A stretch of 9,159 bases of DNA, from the IMG/VR virus record IMGVR_UViG_2671181028_000018; one strand, written 5' to 3'. The stretch is from a virus (lineage: Duplodnaviria > Heunggongvirae > Uroviricota > Caudoviricetes). Positions 567 through 8,799 of the stretch are shown here, in pieces. Both the position numbers and the translations under genes were made by a program. Numbering within the stretch: the stretch's first letter is position 1; every line of letters begins with the position of its first letter. The notes under the pieces were generated by a model, which did no database searches, was not told where the DNA came from, and saw nothing but the letters and a program-made list of their open reading frames with translations.

Positions 567-1133
567 TATCGCGTCCTCAACAATGAATTTTGTGATGCAG
601 TGCCTGGTGCCTCCAGGTGACGTTAACCAGTTAACAATTAACGCCGGATACAGAGAATCCACCCATAACACTGTTTTTGGTTTTAACTGTTCCGCGTGCG
701 CTCAGCCGCATTCACCGCATCACAAAATTCACTTTAAAAAGGGCGGCAGAGCAGTCACGGAGTAAAACTGATACCGCCAAACGTCACCAGAAAATTGATA
801 ACAGAGGGCGTTGCAGCGGGGTTGTCACTTAAGCGTATGGTCAACCTGACAACCCGGTGTCCTCAACGGGGAAGAAATAACCCCGCCATACTTACCGCCG
901 CGCCATTTCGCGGAGTGCCACAACCGGAAGCGCACGGTCGACGAAAATTTAACGACAGGCTATCTATGAACCAGCAACCTCGCCGTGCGCTTTCGCGTTA
1001 TGCTCTGACTTTTCAGAGAAATATCCTTTCAGTAAACTGTCAGTGCCGGATGTTCACCCGTGTCCGGCGCACGCACTCCACTTTACCCGTGGAGAACTCC
1101 TTAATTACCAACCTTAGCTTCGTTGGTTAGCTA

Positions 1134-1848: not shown

Positions 1849-1877
1849 ACTATAGGAAATGCCTAATTACTTGTCAA
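1849..1877 (-). promoter_or_regulatory. pL-like leftward early promoter
   Basis: Read on the minus strand: -35 TTGACA (1877..1872), 17-nt spacer AGTAATTAGGCATTTCC, -10 TATAGT (1854..1849). An operator site lies inside the spacer and another abuts the -35. Points toward the leftward small-gene operon. Confidence 0.6.
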
Positions 1878-1915
1878 TAGGCTATGCCTAATAATTTGGG
1901 CGCGACCTAATAGGT
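1853..1915. promoter_or_regulatory. OL-like operator cluster (three sites about 25 bp apart)
   Basis: TAGGAAATGCCTA (1853..1865) and TAGGCTATGCCTA (1878..1890) both fit TAGG-N5-CCTA. A third dyad, ACCTAATAGGT (1905..1915), sits at the same spacing but with the half-sites in swapped order. The 21-bp stretch 1871..1891 is an exact reverse complement of 2516..2536. Confidence 0.6.
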
Positions 1916-1949
1916 GATGGTTTGTGGGAGAGGTAGTAGGAGTTAACTA

Positions 1950-1971
1950 ACGGGAACTAGGAATTTCCCGT
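1950..1971 (-). terminator. Hairpin downstream of the repressor gene, possible weak terminator
   Basis: 7-bp stem ACGGGAA / TTCCCGT with an 8-nt loop, 15 to 36 nt past the repressor stop codon. No clear U-tract on either strand, so termination efficiency is doubtful. Confidence 0.25.
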
Positions 1972-1985
1972 CGGACCATATAAGT

Positions 1986-2462
1986 TTAAGTTCCTGTCTT
2001 GGTGATGTTCTGGCTTTTCCGTTTTGATTCTTGATTTTTCAGATAGTTAGCTACCTTCATTTCCATTGCGGCAATGTAGGCGCGAACGTCATGATCAACC
2101 CAACTAGGCTCCGTAGCATTTCCAGATAAGAGGAAAGCCACAATTGCTCTTTTTTCATCAGAGGCGGCTTGATAAAGGCTGTTTATGTCTAAAAGTTCAC
2201 TTTTTGTATCTGAAGTGGATGGGGTTGGTATGGGGTATTCGTTAAGCCCCCAATGCTCTGGACCAACCACATCAGAAAAGAAACGCCATAGTTCTGGAAG
2301 TTTGTCTTTACTTATCGAACCTTTCTTAATCCAGTCATGGATTGATGGTGGTTGGACTTTGAAATGACGTGCGATTTCCGCCTTTGATTTGACGGCTCCT
2401 GATGCAATTTTTTTGTTAATGGCCTGCTCTATCGCTCGGCCTAAGTCTTTACCACTAAGCAT
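1986..2462 (-). CDS. Prophage repressor, HTH type without a peptidase S24 domain (RacR-like, 158 aa)
   Basis: ORF-track ORF. N-terminal HTH-like segment KSKAEIARHFKVQPPSIHDWIKKG. No LexA/CI-type autocleavage motif seen. Divergent from the cro-like gene and flanked on both sides by operator clusters. AGGAG lies 11 nt upstream of ATG 2462..2460. Confidence 0.8.
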   Translation of the reverse strand: MLSGKDLGRAIEQAINKKIASGAVKSKAEIARHFKVQPPSIHDWIKKGSISKDKLPELWRFFSDVVGPEHWGLNEYPIPTPSTSDTKSELLDINSLYQAASDEKRAIVAFLLSGNATEPSWVDHDVRAYIAAMEMKVANYLKNQESKRKSQNITKTGT

Positions 2463-2491
2463 TGCTTAATAGTCTCCTATGCGCATCGCGT

Positions 2492-2555
2492 TAGGCAATC
2501 CCTACTCTCGATGTGTTAGGCATAGCCTATTGACAATTGTATTAGGCTAAGCCTA
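2492..2555. promoter_or_regulatory. OR-like operator cluster (three sites about 25 bp apart)
   Basis: TAGGCAATCCCTA (2492..2504), TAGGCATAGCCTA (2517..2529) and TAGGCTAAGCCTA (2543..2555), all TAGG-N5-CCTA. The third is part of a 15-bp dyad TTAGGC-TAA-GCCTAA with perfect 6-bp arms. Confidence 0.65.
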
Positions 2556-2559
2556 ATAT
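2530..2559 (+). promoter_or_regulatory. pR-like rightward early promoter
   Basis: -35 TTGACA (2530..2535), 18-nt spacer, -10 TAATAT (2554..2559). The -10 overlaps operator 2543..2555 and the -35 abuts operator 2517..2529. Predicted transcript start is about 20 nt before the ydaS-like ATG. Confidence 0.6.
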
Positions 2560-2586: not shown

Positions 2587-2910
2587 ATGAAAAAAGATAA
2601 CTATTCATTCAAACGAGCTTGTGCTGTTGTCGGTGGGCAATCAGCAATGGCTAGGCTTTTAGGTGTATCTCCTCCAAGCGTAAATCAATGGATCAAAGGT
2701 GTACGTCAGTTGCCTGCTGAGAGATGTCCTGCGATTGAACGAGCAACAAAAGGTGGTGTCCTGTGTGAAGAACTTCGTCCTGATGTTGATTGGACATACT
2801 TACGACGCTCGTCATGTTATTCGCAGAATATGTCGATGAAGCAACCAAATGACGAAAACGATCATACCCGAAGCATCAAGAGGCAAATGATTCATGAAAA
2901 TCAAACATGA
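2587..2910 (+). CDS. ydaS: Cro-like HTH regulator of the YdaS family
   Basis: ATG 2587 with GGAG 8 nt upstream. The ORF track's 2566 start is a GTG upstream of the predicted transcript start. Motif SFKRACAVVGGQSAMARLLGVSPPSVNQWIKGVRQLPAERCPAIERAT is characteristic of YdaS-type proteins as I recall them. First gene after pR, divergent from the repressor. Confidence 0.8.
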   Translation: MKKDNYSFKRACAVVGGQSAMARLLGVSPPSVNQWIKGVRQLPAERCPAIERATKGGVLCEELRPDVDWTYLRRSSCYSQNMSMKQPNDENDHTRSIKRQMIHENQT

Positions 2911-3319
2911 GCACATCCGCATGGCGATGAATGCCTGGGCATACCCTGATGGTGAGAAAGTTCCTGCAGCTGAAATAGCCCGGACTTATTTCGAACTGGG
3001 GATGACGTTCCCTGAACTGTACGACGACAGCCATCCGGAAGCCCTGGCCCGTAATACACAGAAAATTTTCCGTTGGCTGGATAAAGACACCCCTGATGCT
3101 GTTGAAAAAATTCAGGCTCTGTTACCGGCGATCGAAAAGGCAATGCCGCCTCTGCTGGTGGCCCGTATGCGCAGTCACAGCTCTGAGTATTACCGGGAGA
3201 TTGTCGAACGGCGGGATCGGCTGGTGAAGGATGTCGACGATTTTGTTGCGTCAGCGGTTGTTTTGTATGACCAGATGAATCGCGGCGGCCCGGCAGGGAA
3301 TGCTGTGGTGATGCACTAA
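2894..3319 (+). CDS. ydaT: YdaT-family protein (CII-like regulator, historically called a toxin)
   Basis: ATG 2894 with AAGAGG 10 nt upstream; overlaps the ydaS-like gene by 17 nt. Begins MKIKHEHI..., 141 aa, immediately downstream of the ydaS-like gene as in the Rac immunity region. Confidence 0.75.
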   Translation: MKIKHEHIRMAMNAWAYPDGEKVPAAEIARTYFELGMTFPELYDDSHPEALARNTQKIFRWLDKDTPDAVEKIQALLPAIEKAMPPLLVARMRSHSSEYYREIVERRDRLVKDVDDFVASAVVLYDQMNRGGPAGNAVVMH

Positions 3320-5166: not shown

Positions 5167-8100
5167 ATGAGTGATGATAGCTATAAATTTCAAAAGTTAA
5201 CGCCGTTCAGCGATGTTGAGCTGGGTGTATATAAAAATGCGATAGATTTTGTTTTTGCCAATAACGATCTAAAAAATGTTGCGATATCAGGGCAATATAG
5301 CGCAGGAAAAAGTAGTCTTATCGAATCCTATAAGAAAAGTCATTCAAATATAAAGTTTGTTCATATCTCACTTGCTCATTTCAGATCGATTGAGGAAGCT
5401 GAAACTAATGAACCAAGTAAAGATATAAATGAAACCGCGTTAGAAGGTAAAGTTCTTAACCAGTTAATTCACCAAATTAATGCTGATGATATTCCCCAGA
5501 CACATTTTAAAGTAAAGAAAAAAATAAAAACTAACAACATTGTGATAAACACCATCTTTACGGTGTTATTTATCGCCATGATACTACATATCACGCTATT
5601 TAATAAGTGGGAAAAGTTTGTTTCACTTTTATCTGAAGGTAATATAAAGACACTACTTACATTATCAACTAAATACGATACGCTTTTAATTAGTGGGTTT
5701 ATATGTACTATCCTATCTTGTATTTTCATTTACAAGTTAATAAAAACCCAAAAGAATCGTAATGTTCTTAAGAAAATAAATTTACAGGGTAATGAAATAG
5801 AGATTTTTGAAGAAAGTAACGAGTCTTATTTCGATAGATATTTAAATGAAGTATTGTACCTTTTCGAGAACGTTGATGCTGATGCCATTGTTTTTGAAGA
5901 CATGGACCGTTTTAATAGTAATAACATCTTTGAACGTCTTCATGAGGTTAACAGACTGGTTAATATTCAACGGGACACAGCAGGGCACAAGAAATCGACG
6001 TTACGTTTTATTTACTTGCTTCGTGATGATATCTTCATTTCGAAGGATAGAACCAAATTCTTTGATTATATCATTCCAGTTATTCCTGTTGTTGATAGTT
6101 CTAACTCTTACGATCAGTTTATCACACATTTTGATGGTGGTGGTATTCTCAAGTTGTTCAATGAAAGATTTCTACAAGGGATGTCTTTATATATTGATGA
6201 TATGAGAATATTGAAGAATATTTATAACGAATTTCAAATTTATTATAACAAATTAAACACGACAGAACTTGACTGTAATAAAATGTTGGCCATTATTGCC
6301 TATAAGAATATTTTCCCAAGAGATTTTAGTGAGTTGCAACTTAATCAAGGTATGGTTTATACCATATTTAGTGAAAAAGACAACCTTATTATTGAAGAAA
6401 TAAAGAAAATAGAAAAAGATATTAGAGATAGAAAAAAAGAGATTGAGGCAATCAATGATGAAATACTCAACTCTAGTCAGGAGGTTGATGCTATATACGA
6501 TAAGGAATTATCTAGATATAATAATCATCCTCACTATAATCAGGCTGAGAAAGCTGATATAGCAAAGAGAAGGGCGGCTAGAAAAGAAAGTGTTGAAAAT
6601 AAATTTAATGGTAAAATAGAAGAAATTAATGAGCTTATATCAAGATCAAGAGAAAGTTTGGTTGATTCTAGAAACAAAAGACTTAAAGAAGTAATAACTA
6701 GAGAAAACATTGATGAAATATTTAAACTCACCTATACCAATGAAATTGGAGAGGAAAGAGACTTTAATGAAATAAAAAGCAGTGAGCATTTTGACTTGCT
6801 TAAATACCTTATTCGTGATGGTTATATTGATGAAACCTATACCGACTATATGACCTATTTTTATGAAAATAGCCTGAGTCGAATTGATAAGATGTTTTTA
6901 CGCAGCATTACCGATCAAAAAGGCAAAGAGTTCACTTATCAACTCAAGAACCCCAAGCTGGTCGTTGCCCGCCTTCGAGAAGTGGATTTTGAACAGGAAG
7001 AGGCGCTTAATTTTGATTTATTAGCTTATCTGCTTCAAACGCCAGCCCAGGTAAACTTAATAAAACGTTTATTCAAACAACTAAGAAAAGATAGAAGAGT
7101 TGAGTTTATTCGTGGTTACTTTGAAACTGAGAGGGCTCAGCCTGTCTTCATTAATCGATTAAATACACAGTGGCCTGAGTTTTTTTCTTATGCGCTGACA
7201 GAGAGTGAATTTTCTGCTGATTGGGTTAAACTCTACTCTATAGGCACGTTTTATTATTCTGCCAATGACGCCATCGAGGCCATTAATATTGATGATTGTC
7301 TGACTGATTACATCTCTGATTCGGCAGGTTATTTAGCAATATCAGAACCGAAGGTTGACAAATTAATTAGTGGTTTTAAGTTGCTTAACGTCTCTTTTGT
7401 CAGTATTAAATTTGAAAACGCAAATAAAGTACTCTTTGATGCGGTTTACCAGCATTCACTTTATGATATTAATTTTTCCAACCTGACCTTAATGCTGAGT
7501 AAGGTTTACACGCTTAATAGTGAAGATGATATTCGCCATAAGAACTATACACTAGTGATGTCACAACCTGATTCTCCCTTGGCTAGTTATGTTAATAACC
7601 ATATTAGGGACTATCTGGATATGGTTTTATCTAGTTGTGATGGTTCAATCGTGGATGATGAATCCATTGTTTTATCCGTTCTTAATAATGAGGGAATATC
7701 TGATGAACAAAAAGGCCAGTATATAAACGCTTTGCAAACTTTCGTGACATCTCTGAGTGAGGTTGAGAGCGAATCTTTATGGTCATCTTTGTTGGATAAA
7801 GATAGAGCAGTGTGCTCTGAGGAAAATATTGTCTCTTATTTTGAACATGTTGATGGACTGGATGACTCACTTATCGAATTTATCAATAGAACTGATGTAG
7901 ACCTGAATTTTCAAAATATTAATATTGATAACGAGCTTAAAGGTAAATTATTTAAATCGATTGTTATCTGTAATGATTTATCAAATGATAAATATGAAAA
8001 ATTAATTTGCTCACTAAATATTATTTGTAAAACATCCTTTAGCGCTAGTAATATCGCGAGTGATAAGTTCAAAATATTAGTGGATAAAAATATTATTCGT

Positions 8101-8799
8101 ATGAATGTTGCGCCACTTAATTTCATACGAGATAACTATTCAGAGCAACTTTCCTATTATATTCATAAGAATATCAGGGCATACGTTGAATTAATGACGA
8201 TTGATAACTTTATTTTGGATGAGGCTATATCAATACTTTCTTGGAAAGTTGATGATGATTTGAAAGTTAAGCTACTCGAGTTTGTTAAAACTCCGTTGGC
8301 TATTTATAGTAAGAATTACTCTCAGGTCGTTAATGACTATATTTTAGAAAATAATTTTAAACCAGATGAACTTCTAATCTTGACGTCATCTTATAAAACT
8401 TGGGGAACCTCTACTCAGTCGCTCATCTTGAGTCGAGCAATACAGGATATATCAGCATTGATAGCAAGTCCTAATGATGTTTCTGAACCGTTACTAAAAA
8501 ACCTGTTTGTCGCAGAGGGACTGAATATGCAGAATAAAATAGCACTGCTAATCGCTTTGTTGCCGGGTAAGGATTTGAGTAAGACGACTTGCAAAGAGTA
8601 TCTTGATCTGCTTGGTTTATCGGAGTTCAGTAAAATTTTGGGGCGAGGCAAACCTAAAATTGAAGTTGATTCAACTAATCAAAGTTTATTAACAGCATTA
8701 AGAGATAACCACTTCTTCTCTGATTTTGAGGTGGATAATGAAAATCCCACTTATTATAAAATAACAAGGCGGCGCTCTATGTTTGGCTCAGATACATAG
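5167..8799 (+). CDS. Large P-loop NTPase with transmembrane insertion in the NTPase domain (KAP-type / YobI-like / Tmn-like), 1210 aa
   Basis: ORF-track ORF. Walker A GQYSAGKS (5290..5313). Two hydrophobic helices between the Walker motifs: IVINTIFTVLFIAMILHITLF (about 5536..5601) and LLISGFICTILSCIFIYKLI (about 5680..5745). Walker B IVFEDMDR (5887..5910), matching the hhhhDDxDR form typical of KAP NTPases. A Lys/Glu-rich coiled-coil-like stretch (roughly residues 400 to 520) and a long C-terminal region without recognisable motifs follow. Codon usage is strongly A/T-biased, unlike the flanks. Confidence 0.9.
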   Translation: MSDDSYKFQKLTPFSDVELGVYKNAIDFVFANNDLKNVAISGQYSAGKSSLIESYKKSHSNIKFVHISLAHFRSIEEAETNEPSKDINETALEGKVLNQLIHQINADDIPQTHFKVKKKIKTNNIVINTIFTVLFIAMILHITLFNKWEKFVSLLSEGNIKTLLTLSTKYDTLLISGFICTILSCIFIYKLIKTQKNRNVLKKINLQGNEIEIFEESNESYFDRYLNEVLYLFENVDADAIVFEDMDRFNSNNIFERLHEVNRLVNIQRDTAGHKKSTLRFIYLLRDDIFISKDRTKFFDYIIPVIPVVDSSNSYDQFITHFDGGGILKLFNERFLQGMSLYIDDMRILKNIYNEFQIYYNKLNTTELDCNKMLAIIAYKNIFPRDFSELQLNQGMVYTIFSEKDNLIIEEIKKIEKDIRDRKKEIEAINDEILNSSQEVDAIYDKELSRYNNHPHYNQAEKADIAKRRAARKESVENKFNGKIEEINELISRSRESLVDSRNKRLKEVITRENIDEIFKLTYTNEIGEERDFNEIKSSEHFDLLKYLIRDGYIDETYTDYMTYFYENSLSRIDKMFLRSITDQKGKEFTYQLKNPKLVVARLREVDFEQEEALNFDLLAYLLQTPAQVNLIKRLFKQLRKDRRVEFIRGYFETERAQPVFINRLNTQWPEFFSYALTESEFSADWVKLYSIGTFYYSANDAIEAINIDDCLTDYISDSAGYLAISEPKVDKLISGFKLLNVSFVSIKFENANKVLFDAVYQHSLYDINFSNLTLMLSKVYTLNSEDDIRHKNYTLVMSQPDSPLASYVNNHIRDYLDMVLSSCDGSIVDDESIVLSVLNNEGISDEQKGQYINALQTFVTSLSEVESESLWSSLLDKDRAVCSEENIVSYFEHVDGLDDSLIEFINRTDVDLNFQNINIDNELKGKLFKSIVICNDLSNDKYEKLICSLNIICKTSFSASNIASDKFKILVDKNIIRMNVAPLNFIRDNYSEQLSYYIHKNIRAYVELMTIDNFILDEAISILSWKVDDDLKVKLLEFVKTPLAIYSKNYSQVVNDYILENNFKPDELLILTSSYKTWGTSTQSLILSRAIQDISALIASPNDVSEPLLKNLFVAEGLNMQNKIALLIALLPGKDLSKTTCKEYLDLLGLSEFSKILGRGKPKIEVDSTNQSLLTALRDNHFFSDFEVDNENPTYYKITRRRSMFGSDT

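Follow-up and report, generated by a model that had tools for sequence, protein, structure and literature searches.

The immunity region of the Rac prophage has been dissected in E. coli K-12 since 2017, so the type of switch described here is already known. The K-12 allele was studied by EMSA, ChIP-qPCR, GFP reporter, DNase I footprint, primer extension and reporter mutagenesis, and purified K-12 RacR was found to shift and footprint the repeats of the right arm and to repress the promoter PydaS (PMC5700373, PMC9638921). The start of PydaS was mapped and mutation of its -10 abolished activity; three racR promoters (PracR1-3) were mapped as well, of which PracR3 is the main one and yields a leaderless mRNA (PMC9638921). 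The PydaS promoter region is protected first, at the lowest RacR concentration, and a further footprint lies just upstream of the racR start codon, at PracR3, where operator O3 was assigned (PMC9638921). RacR is an octamer by size exclusion and has a C-terminal domain unlike that of CI; the authors who reported the octamer interpreted it as one dimer on each of the four right-arm sites and not as a loop (PMC11014345). PydaS is weak in K-12 even without RacR and is also under the control of OxyR and a reverse promoter (PMC11879457), showing that the switch is not a simple copy of that of lambda.

Two further systems are close enough to be compared. Prophage CP-933P of O157:H7 carries a PaaR2/YdaS/YdaT switch with PR, PRM, PRE and PL/OL (PMC8630535) and has a YdaT box at the end of ydaS (PMC9986795). 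The short Gifsy-type repressors GfoR and GtgR are controlled by LexA-regulated antirepressors (PMC3121763).

We analyzed a stretch of 9,159 nt of phage DNA (the window), for which a preliminary description had proposed a lambda-like immunity switch at 1849-2559, with six dyad operators in two inverted arms around a non-cleavable repressor. [quoted passage not shown] Its features are as follows.

1849 to 1877, minus strand: pL-like early-left promoter, TTGACA at 1877..1872, spacer of 17 nt, TATAGT at 1854..1849, 11/12 consensus
1853 to 1865, no strand: OL1, dyad TAGGAAATGCCTA, exact motif, within the pL spacer and overlapping the -10
1878 to 1890, no strand: OL2, dyad TAGGCTATGCCTA, abutting the pL -35, in the 21-nt perfect inverted repeat common to OR2
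1897 to 1909, no strand: one-mismatch dyad TGGGCGCGACCTA, overlapping the palindrome, newly noted here
1905 to 1915, no strand: palindrome ACCTAATAGGT, two back-to-back half-sites, centre 26 nt from the 1878 site
1986 to 2462, minus strand: racR, 158 aa, N-terminal HTH domain, disordered linker (about residues 74-86), helical C-terminal domain
2456 to 2468, no strand: OR4, weak dyad TAAGCATTGCTTA over the racR ATG, identical in K-12, not in the preliminary description
2471 to 2476, minus strand: -10 counterpart of the K-12 leaderless racR promoter PracR3, GAGACT here versus GAGAAT in K-12
2492 to 2504, no strand: OR3, dyad TAGGCAATCCCTA, from the exact motif and the K-12 alignment
2517 to 2529, no strand: OR2, dyad TAGGCATAGCCTA, abutting the PydaS -35
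2530 to 2559, plus strand: pR (PydaS), TTGACA at 2530-2535, spacer of 18 nt, TAATAT at 2554-2559, 10/12 consensus
2543 to 2555, no strand: OR1, dyad TAGGCTAAGCCTA over the pR spacer and -10
2587 to 2910, plus strand: ydaS-like cro analogue, 107 aa, Pfam YdaS_toxin (3.8e-30) and P22_Cro (1e-08), 85% identical to K-12 YdaS
2887 to 2904: YdaT-box-like repeat ATGATTCATGAAAATCAA, one mismatch to the box
2894 to 3319, plus strand: ydaT, cII analogue, CP-933P allele, YdaT_toxin (8.2e-11), PDB 8bt1 (E 1.2e-88), 31% identical to K-12 YdaT

A motif scan of the window recovered all five TAGG-N5-CCTA sites proposed earlier as exact TAGGNNNNNCCTA matches (1853, 1878, 2492, 2517 and 2543), while shuffled windows contained 0.10 on average and none of 200 shuffles reached five. 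RacR dimers would bind these 13-bp dyads, with the consensus (A/T)TAGGC-N3-GCCTA(A/T). The reported 21-bp inverted repeat is likewise present, 1871-1891 and 2516-2536 being complementary over all 21 nt (100%), and a second inverted pair of arms (1853-1866 and 2491-2504) is complementary at 86%. Sites are spaced centre to centre by 25 nt on the left and by 26 and 25 nt on the right, and the arms lie 639-690 bp (about 0.65 kb) apart. The count of six operators has to be amended: the five canonical dyads stand, the sixth is a palindrome and not a canonical dyad, and the right arm has four dyads instead of three.

The repressor shares 92% identity with K-12 RacR across the full 158 aa, scores 246.8 bits with the NCBIfam equivalog NF049929 (cut-off 200) and is annotated as racR in RefSeq. 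It had been described as short and lacking an S24 autopeptidase, in agreement with all three analyses made here. Pfam gave no match to S24 (PF00717) at E values up to 10. The AlphaFold model, computed from an alignment of 43 sequences (pLDDT 81.8; a single-sequence model had a pLDDT of 49.9 and was unusable), is entirely helical, whereas the S24 fold is rich in beta strands. No S24 structure was found among the 203 Foldseek matches to this model, the best of which were HipB, the N-terminal domain of lambda cI (1lli, probability 0.92), ClgR and C proteins, all with E values of at least 0.2. HTH profiles matched only below the Pfam threshold, a sequence search of the PDB returned no meaningful homologue of solved structure, and Foldseek found no match for the C-terminal domain alone. 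Published work takes the same view of RacR (PMC11014345, PMC3121763). The lack of an S24 autopeptidase means that the switch would not be flipped by RecA-stimulated self-cleavage. In relatives of 226-235 aa the same N-terminal domain, with 86% identity across residues 1-77, is joined to Peptidase_S24; their sequences diverge from RacR after residue 77, and in both arms these fused repressors have the same operators.

The right arm is 93% identical to the intergenic region of K-12 Rac, with the half-sites and both PydaS hexamers invariant; the mapped K-12 promoter has the same TTGACA/TAATAT (PMC9638921). RacR of the window would likewise bind the right-arm repeats and repress PydaS through them. 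OR4 corresponds to the published K-12 operator O3 (PMC9638921) and reads TAGGCAATGCTTA in distant relatives. OR3 is an extra copy of the Rac-type loci of Escherichia, since the distant relatives have two intergenic sites and the site at the ATG. OR1 to OR4 would cover PydaS, the pR analogue, together with the racR promoters and start codon, by which RacR would silence ydaS, ydaT and the replication genes and limit its own synthesis. No convincing maintenance promoter had been recognized beforehand. The racR promoters do have a weak consensus, but they are not absent, since PracR1-3 are mapped in K-12 (PMC9638921), and the earlier blank reflects this weakness.

Near-consensus promoters pointing outward over both arms had also been predicted, and a promoter scan of 1600-2800 located both as the only two promoter-like sites. 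The leftward one, TTGACA-17-TATAGT, lies over the second operator cluster (1853, 1878) beyond the repressor operon. Its predicted start is at about 1842, toward the ydfA-like, ydfB and ydfC genes and DicF. OL1 and OL2 would bracket the -35 and overlap the -10 of this pL analogue, which in this phage would drive the ydfA-like/ydfB/ydfC/DicF/dicB operon. Downstream of racR homologues with 58-92% identity (K-12, vB_EcoS-683R6, E. ruysiae, Mixta, a Pseudomonadota MAG, Proteus, Achromobacter and KpF5) the layout is seen again: two dyads spaced by 25 bp flank TTGACA, and the -10 lies over the distal one. The arrangement OL2, -35, OL1, -10 is conserved in at least nine independent loci. OL1 is kept in K-12, phage 683R6, E. 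ruysiae, KpF5, Mixta, Proteus and Achromobacter. The flanks of the unit are unrelated among the loci of these relatives, and in some of them the unit is 1.4-2.3 kb away. Exact motif matches in the relatives sit in the operator clusters flanking racR; the single exception, in Proteus, is found a short way upstream of the OL pair. In a heteroimmune relative the leader and genes of the left arm are shared as far as about window position 1845, past which another repressor and other dyads (TACCCATRGGTA) follow, again spaced by 25 nt; repressor and operators are replaced together there.

An opposing reading takes the left arm for an inert duplicate of the right-arm unit, with the leftward genes transcribed only by read-through from the racR promoter and kept in check by Rho. 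A Rho-dependent terminator, trac, is indeed described in racR, and the silencing of kilR was attributed to it without invoking pL (PMC4150792). The first 40 nt past the predicted pL start are rich in C and poor in G (17 C, 4 G), so Rho clearly could act on this leader, and there is no published map of a pL start site. In K-12, however, depletion of RacR derepresses the left-arm Rac genes (PMC6765115; bioRxiv 10.64898/2026.09.06.749655): when racR is lowered by CRISPRi or by a C protein, ydaG, ydaF, kilR, racC and other left-arm genes rise 40-70-fold or more. Read-through from the racR promoter would predict the reverse, and an independent leftward promoter repressed by RacR would fit. Further evidence against an inert duplicate is the invariant layout across genera amid differing surroundings, the same arrangement at the S24-type locus and the 11 of 12 consensus positions matched by pL. 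Moreover, a terminator-like hairpin expected to close the repressor operon precedes the left arm in KpF5 and one Achromobacter locus. We regard the inert duplicate as very unlikely; Rho termination and pL are not mutually exclusive mechanisms. The cross-genus comparison gives good support for the left arm as a conserved functional unit with predicted promoter activity, corresponding to the leftward promoter and operators of a RacR-type switch. No description of this arm (OL2, -35, OL1, -10) was found in the open-access literature on Rac-type switches, and as far as that literature goes the left operator/promoter unit of RacR-type phages appears to be undescribed so far.

The palindrome at 1905-1915 had been counted as the sixth operator, at the same spacing of roughly 25 bp. 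Palindrome and spacing are confirmed; an operator geometry is not, because a dimer that fits TAGG-N5-CCTA could not engage half-sites placed back to back (CCTA-A-TAGG). Six Escherichia variants all keep the block ACCTAATAGGTGATGG unchanged amid flanks that vary. The dyad at 1897-1909, 19 nt from OL2, was considered as a canonical OL3 and rejected, since its left half varies among the Escherichia variants (TGGG, TGAT, TGAG, TAAG) while ACCTAATAGGTGATGG does not. It is close to evenly balanced whether the palindrome is a RacR operator at all; it may instead be bound by YdaS or by a protein of the host, or act in the 3' end of the racR transcript as an RNA or terminator-related element. The asymmetric extension of the invariant block argues for a function other than RacR binding, as does the distribution of the palindrome, which is conserved only within Escherichia and is missing from the distant relatives, two of which have a terminator-like hairpin in its place. 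On the other hand, the palindrome holds two 6/7 matches to the published monomer motif ATTAGGC and, at 26 nt from OL2, keeps the phase of the other sites. The RacR model has a flexible linker, and single half-sites are counted among the protected boxes in K-12 (PMC9638921). No intrinsic terminator was found after racR within 1600-2800, and an Rfam scan detected no RNA family at 1849-2559, the sole match in the window being DicF, elsewhere.

Divergent from racR, the cro-like ydaS is followed by the cII-like ydaT. The repeat at 2887-2904 gains weight from its position only, since the YdaT-box count is not above chance (2 matches versus 1.19 expected in the window). These two genes also bear on a different interpretation of the locus, a toxin-repressor or atypical toxin-antitoxin module in which RacR silences YdaS and YdaT and the repeats are an autoregulatory operator of the antitoxin type. 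The Pfam family names (YdaS_toxin, YdaT_toxin) point in this direction, and racR of K-12 is essential unless ydaS-ydaT is deleted (PMC5700373, PMC5700377). Nevertheless, the order of the genes, the divergence of the promoters and the further set of operators past the repressor match a lambdoid immunity region, and the genetic context is a phage early region; YdaS resembles Cro by its P22_Cro match, and YdaT, for which a structure is solved, is a cII analogue that binds DNA. The same module occurs in the deposited temperate phage genomes KpF5 (Klebsiella) and vB_EcoS-683R6, and the toxin-antitoxin interpretation is disputed in the literature (PMC5917428, PMC8630535, PMC9986795, PMC11879457). 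We give it hardly any credence.

For the immunity switch, the mirror-image arms and the octameric state of RacR in solution make a lambda-style OL-OR loop enclosing racR plausible. Induction would proceed through loss or inactivation of RacR by a route other than RecA-stimulated self-cleavage. The activity of pL, its repression, the looping and the induction route are what we infer for this locus. An exact LexA box (CTGT-N8-ACAG) is absent from the window, where one-mismatch matches number 3 versus 2.5 expected. The 17.9 kb of the DEC9B prophage contain one relaxed match to the LexA pattern, which is the same as the window site at 1370-1385, and no antirepressor gene was found in either. IS elements have truncated the prophage that carries the switch to a remnant, which may leave only a few genes under the control of the switch.

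Beyond annotation the significance is slight, a known switch having been recovered from raw sequence. What is gained is a full operator map of this allele with the left arm included, which would explain the derepression of kilR, racC and recET (here DicF and dicB) when RacR falls. A second gain is the coupling of one DNA-binding module and its operators to either an autopeptidase-free or an S24-domain repressor. Tentatively, and as a possibility that we rate somewhat below even, the undescribed OL unit may pair with OR via the RacR octamer in a loop of about 0.65 kb around racR, and the RacR DNA-binding domain with its operators may form a portable 'immunity cassette' with at least three C-terminal solutions (helical oligomerisation, S24 autopeptidase, almost none). 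Phages of the same immunity would then differ in their inducibility by DNA damage. This is relevant to Rac-type prophages without an obvious SOS link and to how they are induced.

Compared with lambda, the locus shares the divergent repressor and cro, dyads about 2.3-2.5 helical turns apart over two outward early promoters, a second operator set past the repressor operon, an octameric repressor with a leaderless mRNA, and a cII-type activator downstream. The arms of lambda are 2.3 kb apart, those of the window about 0.65 kb. Sequence similarity is lacking, the C-terminal domain of RacR is predicted to be helical whereas that of the lambda repressor is an S24 peptidase, the right arm has four sites, one of them on the start codon, and no N gene follows pL. 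In addition, YdaS is reported not to repress racR (PMC9638921).

With the short Gifsy repressors GfoR and GtgR, RacR and DicA have been placed in a group of about 150 aa judged unlikely to self-cleave (PMC3121763). The Gifsy systems differ in that neither the window nor the 17.9 kb of the DEC9B prophage yielded an antirepressor gene or a LexA box.

CP-933P likewise has an octameric repressor without the peptidase motif of RecA-dependent autocleavage, and shares four evenly spaced right-arm repeats, a leaderless repressor mRNA and a separate PL, with -35 and -10 identical to those of PR and with operators of its own past the repressor operon (PMC8630535). YdaT is essentially the identical protein and the box is again at the ydaS/ydaT junction. 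Repressor and operators are unrelated, CP-933P having GTTTAGTAA-type repeats where the window has TAGGC-N3-GCCTA, and the paaA2-parE2 toxin-antitoxin genes of its repressor operon have no counterpart in the window.

The closest system is Rac of K-12, with racR, ydaS-ydaT, operators O1-O3/O4, PydaS and PracR1-4. It differs in the YdaT allele (31% identical; CP-933P type here), in the replication genes (HTH_36 and DUF977 here, ydaU, ydaV and ydaW in K-12), in the left-arm genes (Qin-type ydfA/ydfB/ydfC/DicF/dicB here, ydaG/ydaF/sieB/kilR in K-12), in the -10 sequences of PracR3 (GAGACT for GAGAAT) and PracR2 (AGTAAG, not conserved here), and in the site of the prophage, which is next to potC here and in ttcA in K-12. 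Common to both are RacR (92%), YdaS (85%) and the intergenic region (93%), along with the four right-arm dyads including the site over the racR ATG, the PydaS hexamers, both left-arm dyads, the palindrome and the pL hexamers.

The window is 100% identical to an E. coli DEC9B prophage adjoining potC, and its central gene is racR according to the RefSeq annotation. An allele query was covered to at least 80% in 530 complete E. coli genomes. The genes and the small RNA considered here are:

741-792, minus strand: DicF antisense sRNA (Rfam RF00039, 76.7 bits, E 5e-16)
1986-2462, minus strand: racR, 158 aa, 92% identical to K-12 RacR (NCBIfam equivalog NF049929, 246.8 bits, cut-off 200)
2587-2910, plus strand: ydaS, cro analogue (Pfam YdaS and P22-Cro families; 85% identical to K-12 YdaS)
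2894-3319, plus strand: ydaT, cII analogue, practically the CP-933P protein of solved structure 8bt1 (E 1e-88)
5167-8799, plus strand: gene of a 1210-aa protein; YobI-like P-loop NTPase domain (Pfam, 8e-123)

The YdaT protein is only 31% identical to K-12 YdaT. Judged from the sequence, these gene identities and the DEC9B match mark the window as a mosaic lambdoid prophage with Rac immunity specificity. The lambda-like immunity switch proposed in the preliminary description is supported with minor corrections and matches the published Rac model; the feature is real and belongs to a known system, being one allelic variant of the Rac immunity region.

The operators were located with a motif scan. 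The motif TAGGNNNNNCCTA has exactly five matches in the 9159-nt window, at 1853, 1878, 2492, 2517 and 2543, confirming both the number and the coordinates of the TAGG-N5-CCTA sites reported earlier, while in 200 dinucleotide shuffles the mean was 0.10 matches and the count never reached five. The exact 21-nt inverted repeat described between the two arms was also recovered (1871-1891 and 2516-2536), and a second pair (1853-1866 and 2491-2504) is 86% complementary. Dyad centres are spaced by 25 nt in the left arm and by 26 and 25 nt in the right arm. Both arms have the same layout, with one dyad in the promoter spacer overlapping the -10, one abutting the -35 and further sites upstream. A promoter scan of 1600-2800 returned only two sites, the two outward promoters that had been predicted with a perfect TTGACA -35 and a -10 over the operators. 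Promoters and additional sites are:

1877..1849, minus strand: predicted left promoter pL (TTGACA, 17 nt, TATAGT; 11/12 consensus)
2530..2559, plus strand: PydaS, the pR analogue (TTGACA, 18 nt, TAATAT; 10/12 consensus)
2456-2468: OR4, TAAGCATTGCTTA, the fourth dyad of the right arm, overlapping the start codon of racR
1905-1915: palindrome ACCTAATAGGT, with a centre-to-centre distance of 26 nt to the dyad at 1878

The three right-arm dyads described previously stand, and OR4 completes the set; its counterpart in distant relatives reads TAGGCAATGCTTA, and in K-12 one RacR operator has been placed on the racR ATG (PMC9638921). For K-12 PydaS a single start was mapped, with TTGACA and TAATAT hexamers, and for K-12 racR three, the strongest being leaderless with the -10 GAGAAT (PMC9638921). 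The counterpart of this -10 (PracR3) reads GAGACT in the window (2476..2471), and the PracR2 -10 (AGTAAG) is not conserved. The statement that no maintenance promoter is convincing therefore holds with respect to the consensus, which the K-12 maintenance promoters fit poorly, but not as evidence of absence, since racR promoters are mapped in K-12. A hairpin (ACGGGAA...TTCCCGT, 1950-1971) lies directly past the racR stop codon and is kept in shifted form in K-12 (ACGGAA...TTCCGT); it has no T-run and is therefore not a canonical intrinsic terminator.

The proposed sixth operator at 1905 was retained in part: the palindrome and the spacing of about 25 nt are present, but its half-sites stand back to back, and a TAGG-N5-CCTA-type dimer could therefore use one at most. 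Six Escherichia variants with differing flanks share an unchanged 16-nt block, ACCTAATAGGTGATGG, and an overlapping one-mismatch dyad (1897-1909) has a left half that varies among these variants. The element is absent from the compared relatives outside Escherichia, two of which have a terminator-like hairpin where the palindrome would stand.

The left arm was investigated by comparison, as no sites or promoter between racR and ydaG were found described in the open-access Rac literature, and according to one Rac paper the RacR regulon lacks a detailed characterisation. Homologues of racR (58-92% identical) were fetched from E. coli, E. ruysiae, Mixta, Proteus, Klebsiella, Achromobacter, Nitrosomonas, Aeromonas, MAGs and the phages vB_EcoS-683R6 and Klebsiella KpF5. 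Exact motif matches in these loci fall within the clusters on either side of racR, except for one in Proteus, which is just upstream of its OL pair. The left-arm unit, consisting of ATTAGGC-N3-GCCTA, TTGACA, N5, ATTAGGC-N3-NCCTA and (A)TA(G/A)T, is found beyond the repressor operon in at least nine independent loci with unrelated surroundings. In KpF5 and Achromobacter it is 1.4-2.3 kb away, similar to lambda, where OL stands beyond rexAB; a cargo gene comes before it in KpF5, and in both KpF5 and one Achromobacter locus it stands after a terminator-like hairpin. In the complete temperate KpF5 genome (OR327748.1; 1320-1357 and 1428-2582) about 1.4 kb separates the OL pair from the RacR-type repressor, with a DUF450 gene and the hairpin in between, an order resembling lambda cI-rexAB-OL. 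In one heteroimmune E. coli prophage, similarity to the window extends over the left-arm genes and the leader and stops at about 1845; a different repressor follows, with its own dyads, TACCCATRGGTA, spaced by 25 nt at OL and 24 nt at OR. Repressor and operators thus co-vary, and the module boundary lies at the predicted pL start. The comparative sequence evidence strongly supports the predicted left operator/promoter unit.

Upon racR knock-down with C protein or CRISPRi, ydaG, ydaF, kilR, racC and other left-arm genes are up-regulated 40-70-fold or more (PMC6765115; bioRxiv 10.64898/2026.09.06.749655). Read-through from the racR promoter cannot explain this derepression; an independent RacR-repressed leftward promoter can.

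The predicted pL leader (1780-1845, minus-strand transcript) is C-rich and G-poor in its first 40 nt (17 C, 4 G) and looks like a Rho loading site. A query with 1780-1990 matched 3,702 E. coli genomes, 1,086 over most of its length; partial matches among those listed cover the leader only (about 1780-1843), with no annotated gene beneath, and the one inspected adjoins a different immunity region. A 13-nt direct repeat, GGGTTGGTATGGG, occurs exactly at 1833-1845 in the leader and at 2222-2234 in racR, where it encodes the inter-domain linker (YPIPTP); by rough estimate, chance would seldom produce such a repeat within 900 nt. DicF is located downstream of the ydfA-like (1512-1667), ydfB and ydfC (1134-1352) genes; in DEC9B, dicB is found past the end of the window. 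Thus, a Qin-type division-inhibition operon appears to be placed under a Rac-type pL and RacR, not DicA.

In the rightward region, the N-terminal 440 aa of the 1210-aa protein are matched (4.9e-67) by the PADLOC model 'Tmn', taken here to be the Tiamat defence system. The GC content of its gene is 30-34%, compared to about 48% in the rest of the window, and in DEC9B IS2 and ISEsa1 transposase genes come after it. The gene is likely anti-phage defence cargo inserted in the early-right operon. A YdaT-box-like repeat, ATGATTCATGAAAATCAA (2887-2904), with one mismatch to TTGATT-N6-AATCAA, spans the ydaS end and ydaT start, the position of the footprinted OM site in CP-933P, whose ydaT allele the window carries; by analogy it suggests a PRE-like establishment promoter nearby.

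RacR had been described as a short repressor without an S24 autopeptidase. Pfam gave no S24 match even at E up to 10, and the AlphaFold model (43-sequence alignment; pLDDT 81.8) contains helices only, joined by a linker (about residues 74-86) that is disordered. Foldseek against the PDB found no S24 peptidase, and its matches, to Xre proteins and the lambda cI N-terminal domain, were all weak, bearing out this description. The homologue search also yielded 226-235-aa proteins (P0101, P0102, P0114) in which Peptidase_S24 is joined to an N-terminal domain of RacR type (residues 1-77, 86% identity). In the relative locus L018, the same TAGG-N5-CCTA operators are located upstream of such a repressor (P0102, 2501-3208) at 2435, 2460 and 2495, and a downstream pair 25 nt apart (3973, 3998) follows a terminator-like hairpin. 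One immunity specificity therefore exists in nature in both a cleavable-type and a non-cleavable-type version. No convincing LexA box was found in the window or in 17.9 kb of the DEC9B prophage, and a published list of short repressors with possible antirepressor control includes RacR (Lemire et al., 2011; PMC3121763).

In the proposed mechanism, RacR dimers would occupy OR1 (2543) and OR2 (2517) to block PydaS, as well as OL1 (1853) and OL2 (1878) to block pL; at higher concentration OR3 (2492) and OR4 would be filled, limiting racR itself. Loss of RacR would fire both early operons, rightward ydaS-ydaT and the replication genes, leftward the ydfA-like/ydfB/ydfC/DicF/dicB genes. Lambda-like OL-OR looping would be plausible, because RacR forms octamers in solution and the mirror-image arms are separated by 639-690 bp.

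The right-arm intergenic region is 93% identical to that of K-12 Rac, and none of the half-sites or PydaS hexamers differs between the two. In K-12, three GCCTAA/TTAGGC repeats, RacR EMSA complexes, ChIP enrichment and reporter repression were reported (Krishnamurthi et al., 2017; PMC5700373), and RacR footprints defined the operators as (T/A)TAGGC-N3-GCCTA(T/A) (Wisniewska et al., 2022; PMC9638921). A follow-up in 2023 counted four inverted repeats, found the RacR octamer by size exclusion and modelled a lambda-CI-like N-terminal domain with an unrelated C-terminal oligomerisation domain (PMC11014345); in 2025, YdaT was assigned a cII-like role and a PRE-like reverse promoter was reported (PMC11879457). 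The related prophage CP-933P was shown to possess a separate PL that has OL sites, and its octameric repressor lacks the RecA-autocleavage peptidase motif (PMC8630535). The preliminary interpretation is therefore essentially the published model. Our sequence comparisons add only modestly to it: the conserved left operator/promoter unit, and a RacR DNA-binding module shuffled among different C-terminal domains.
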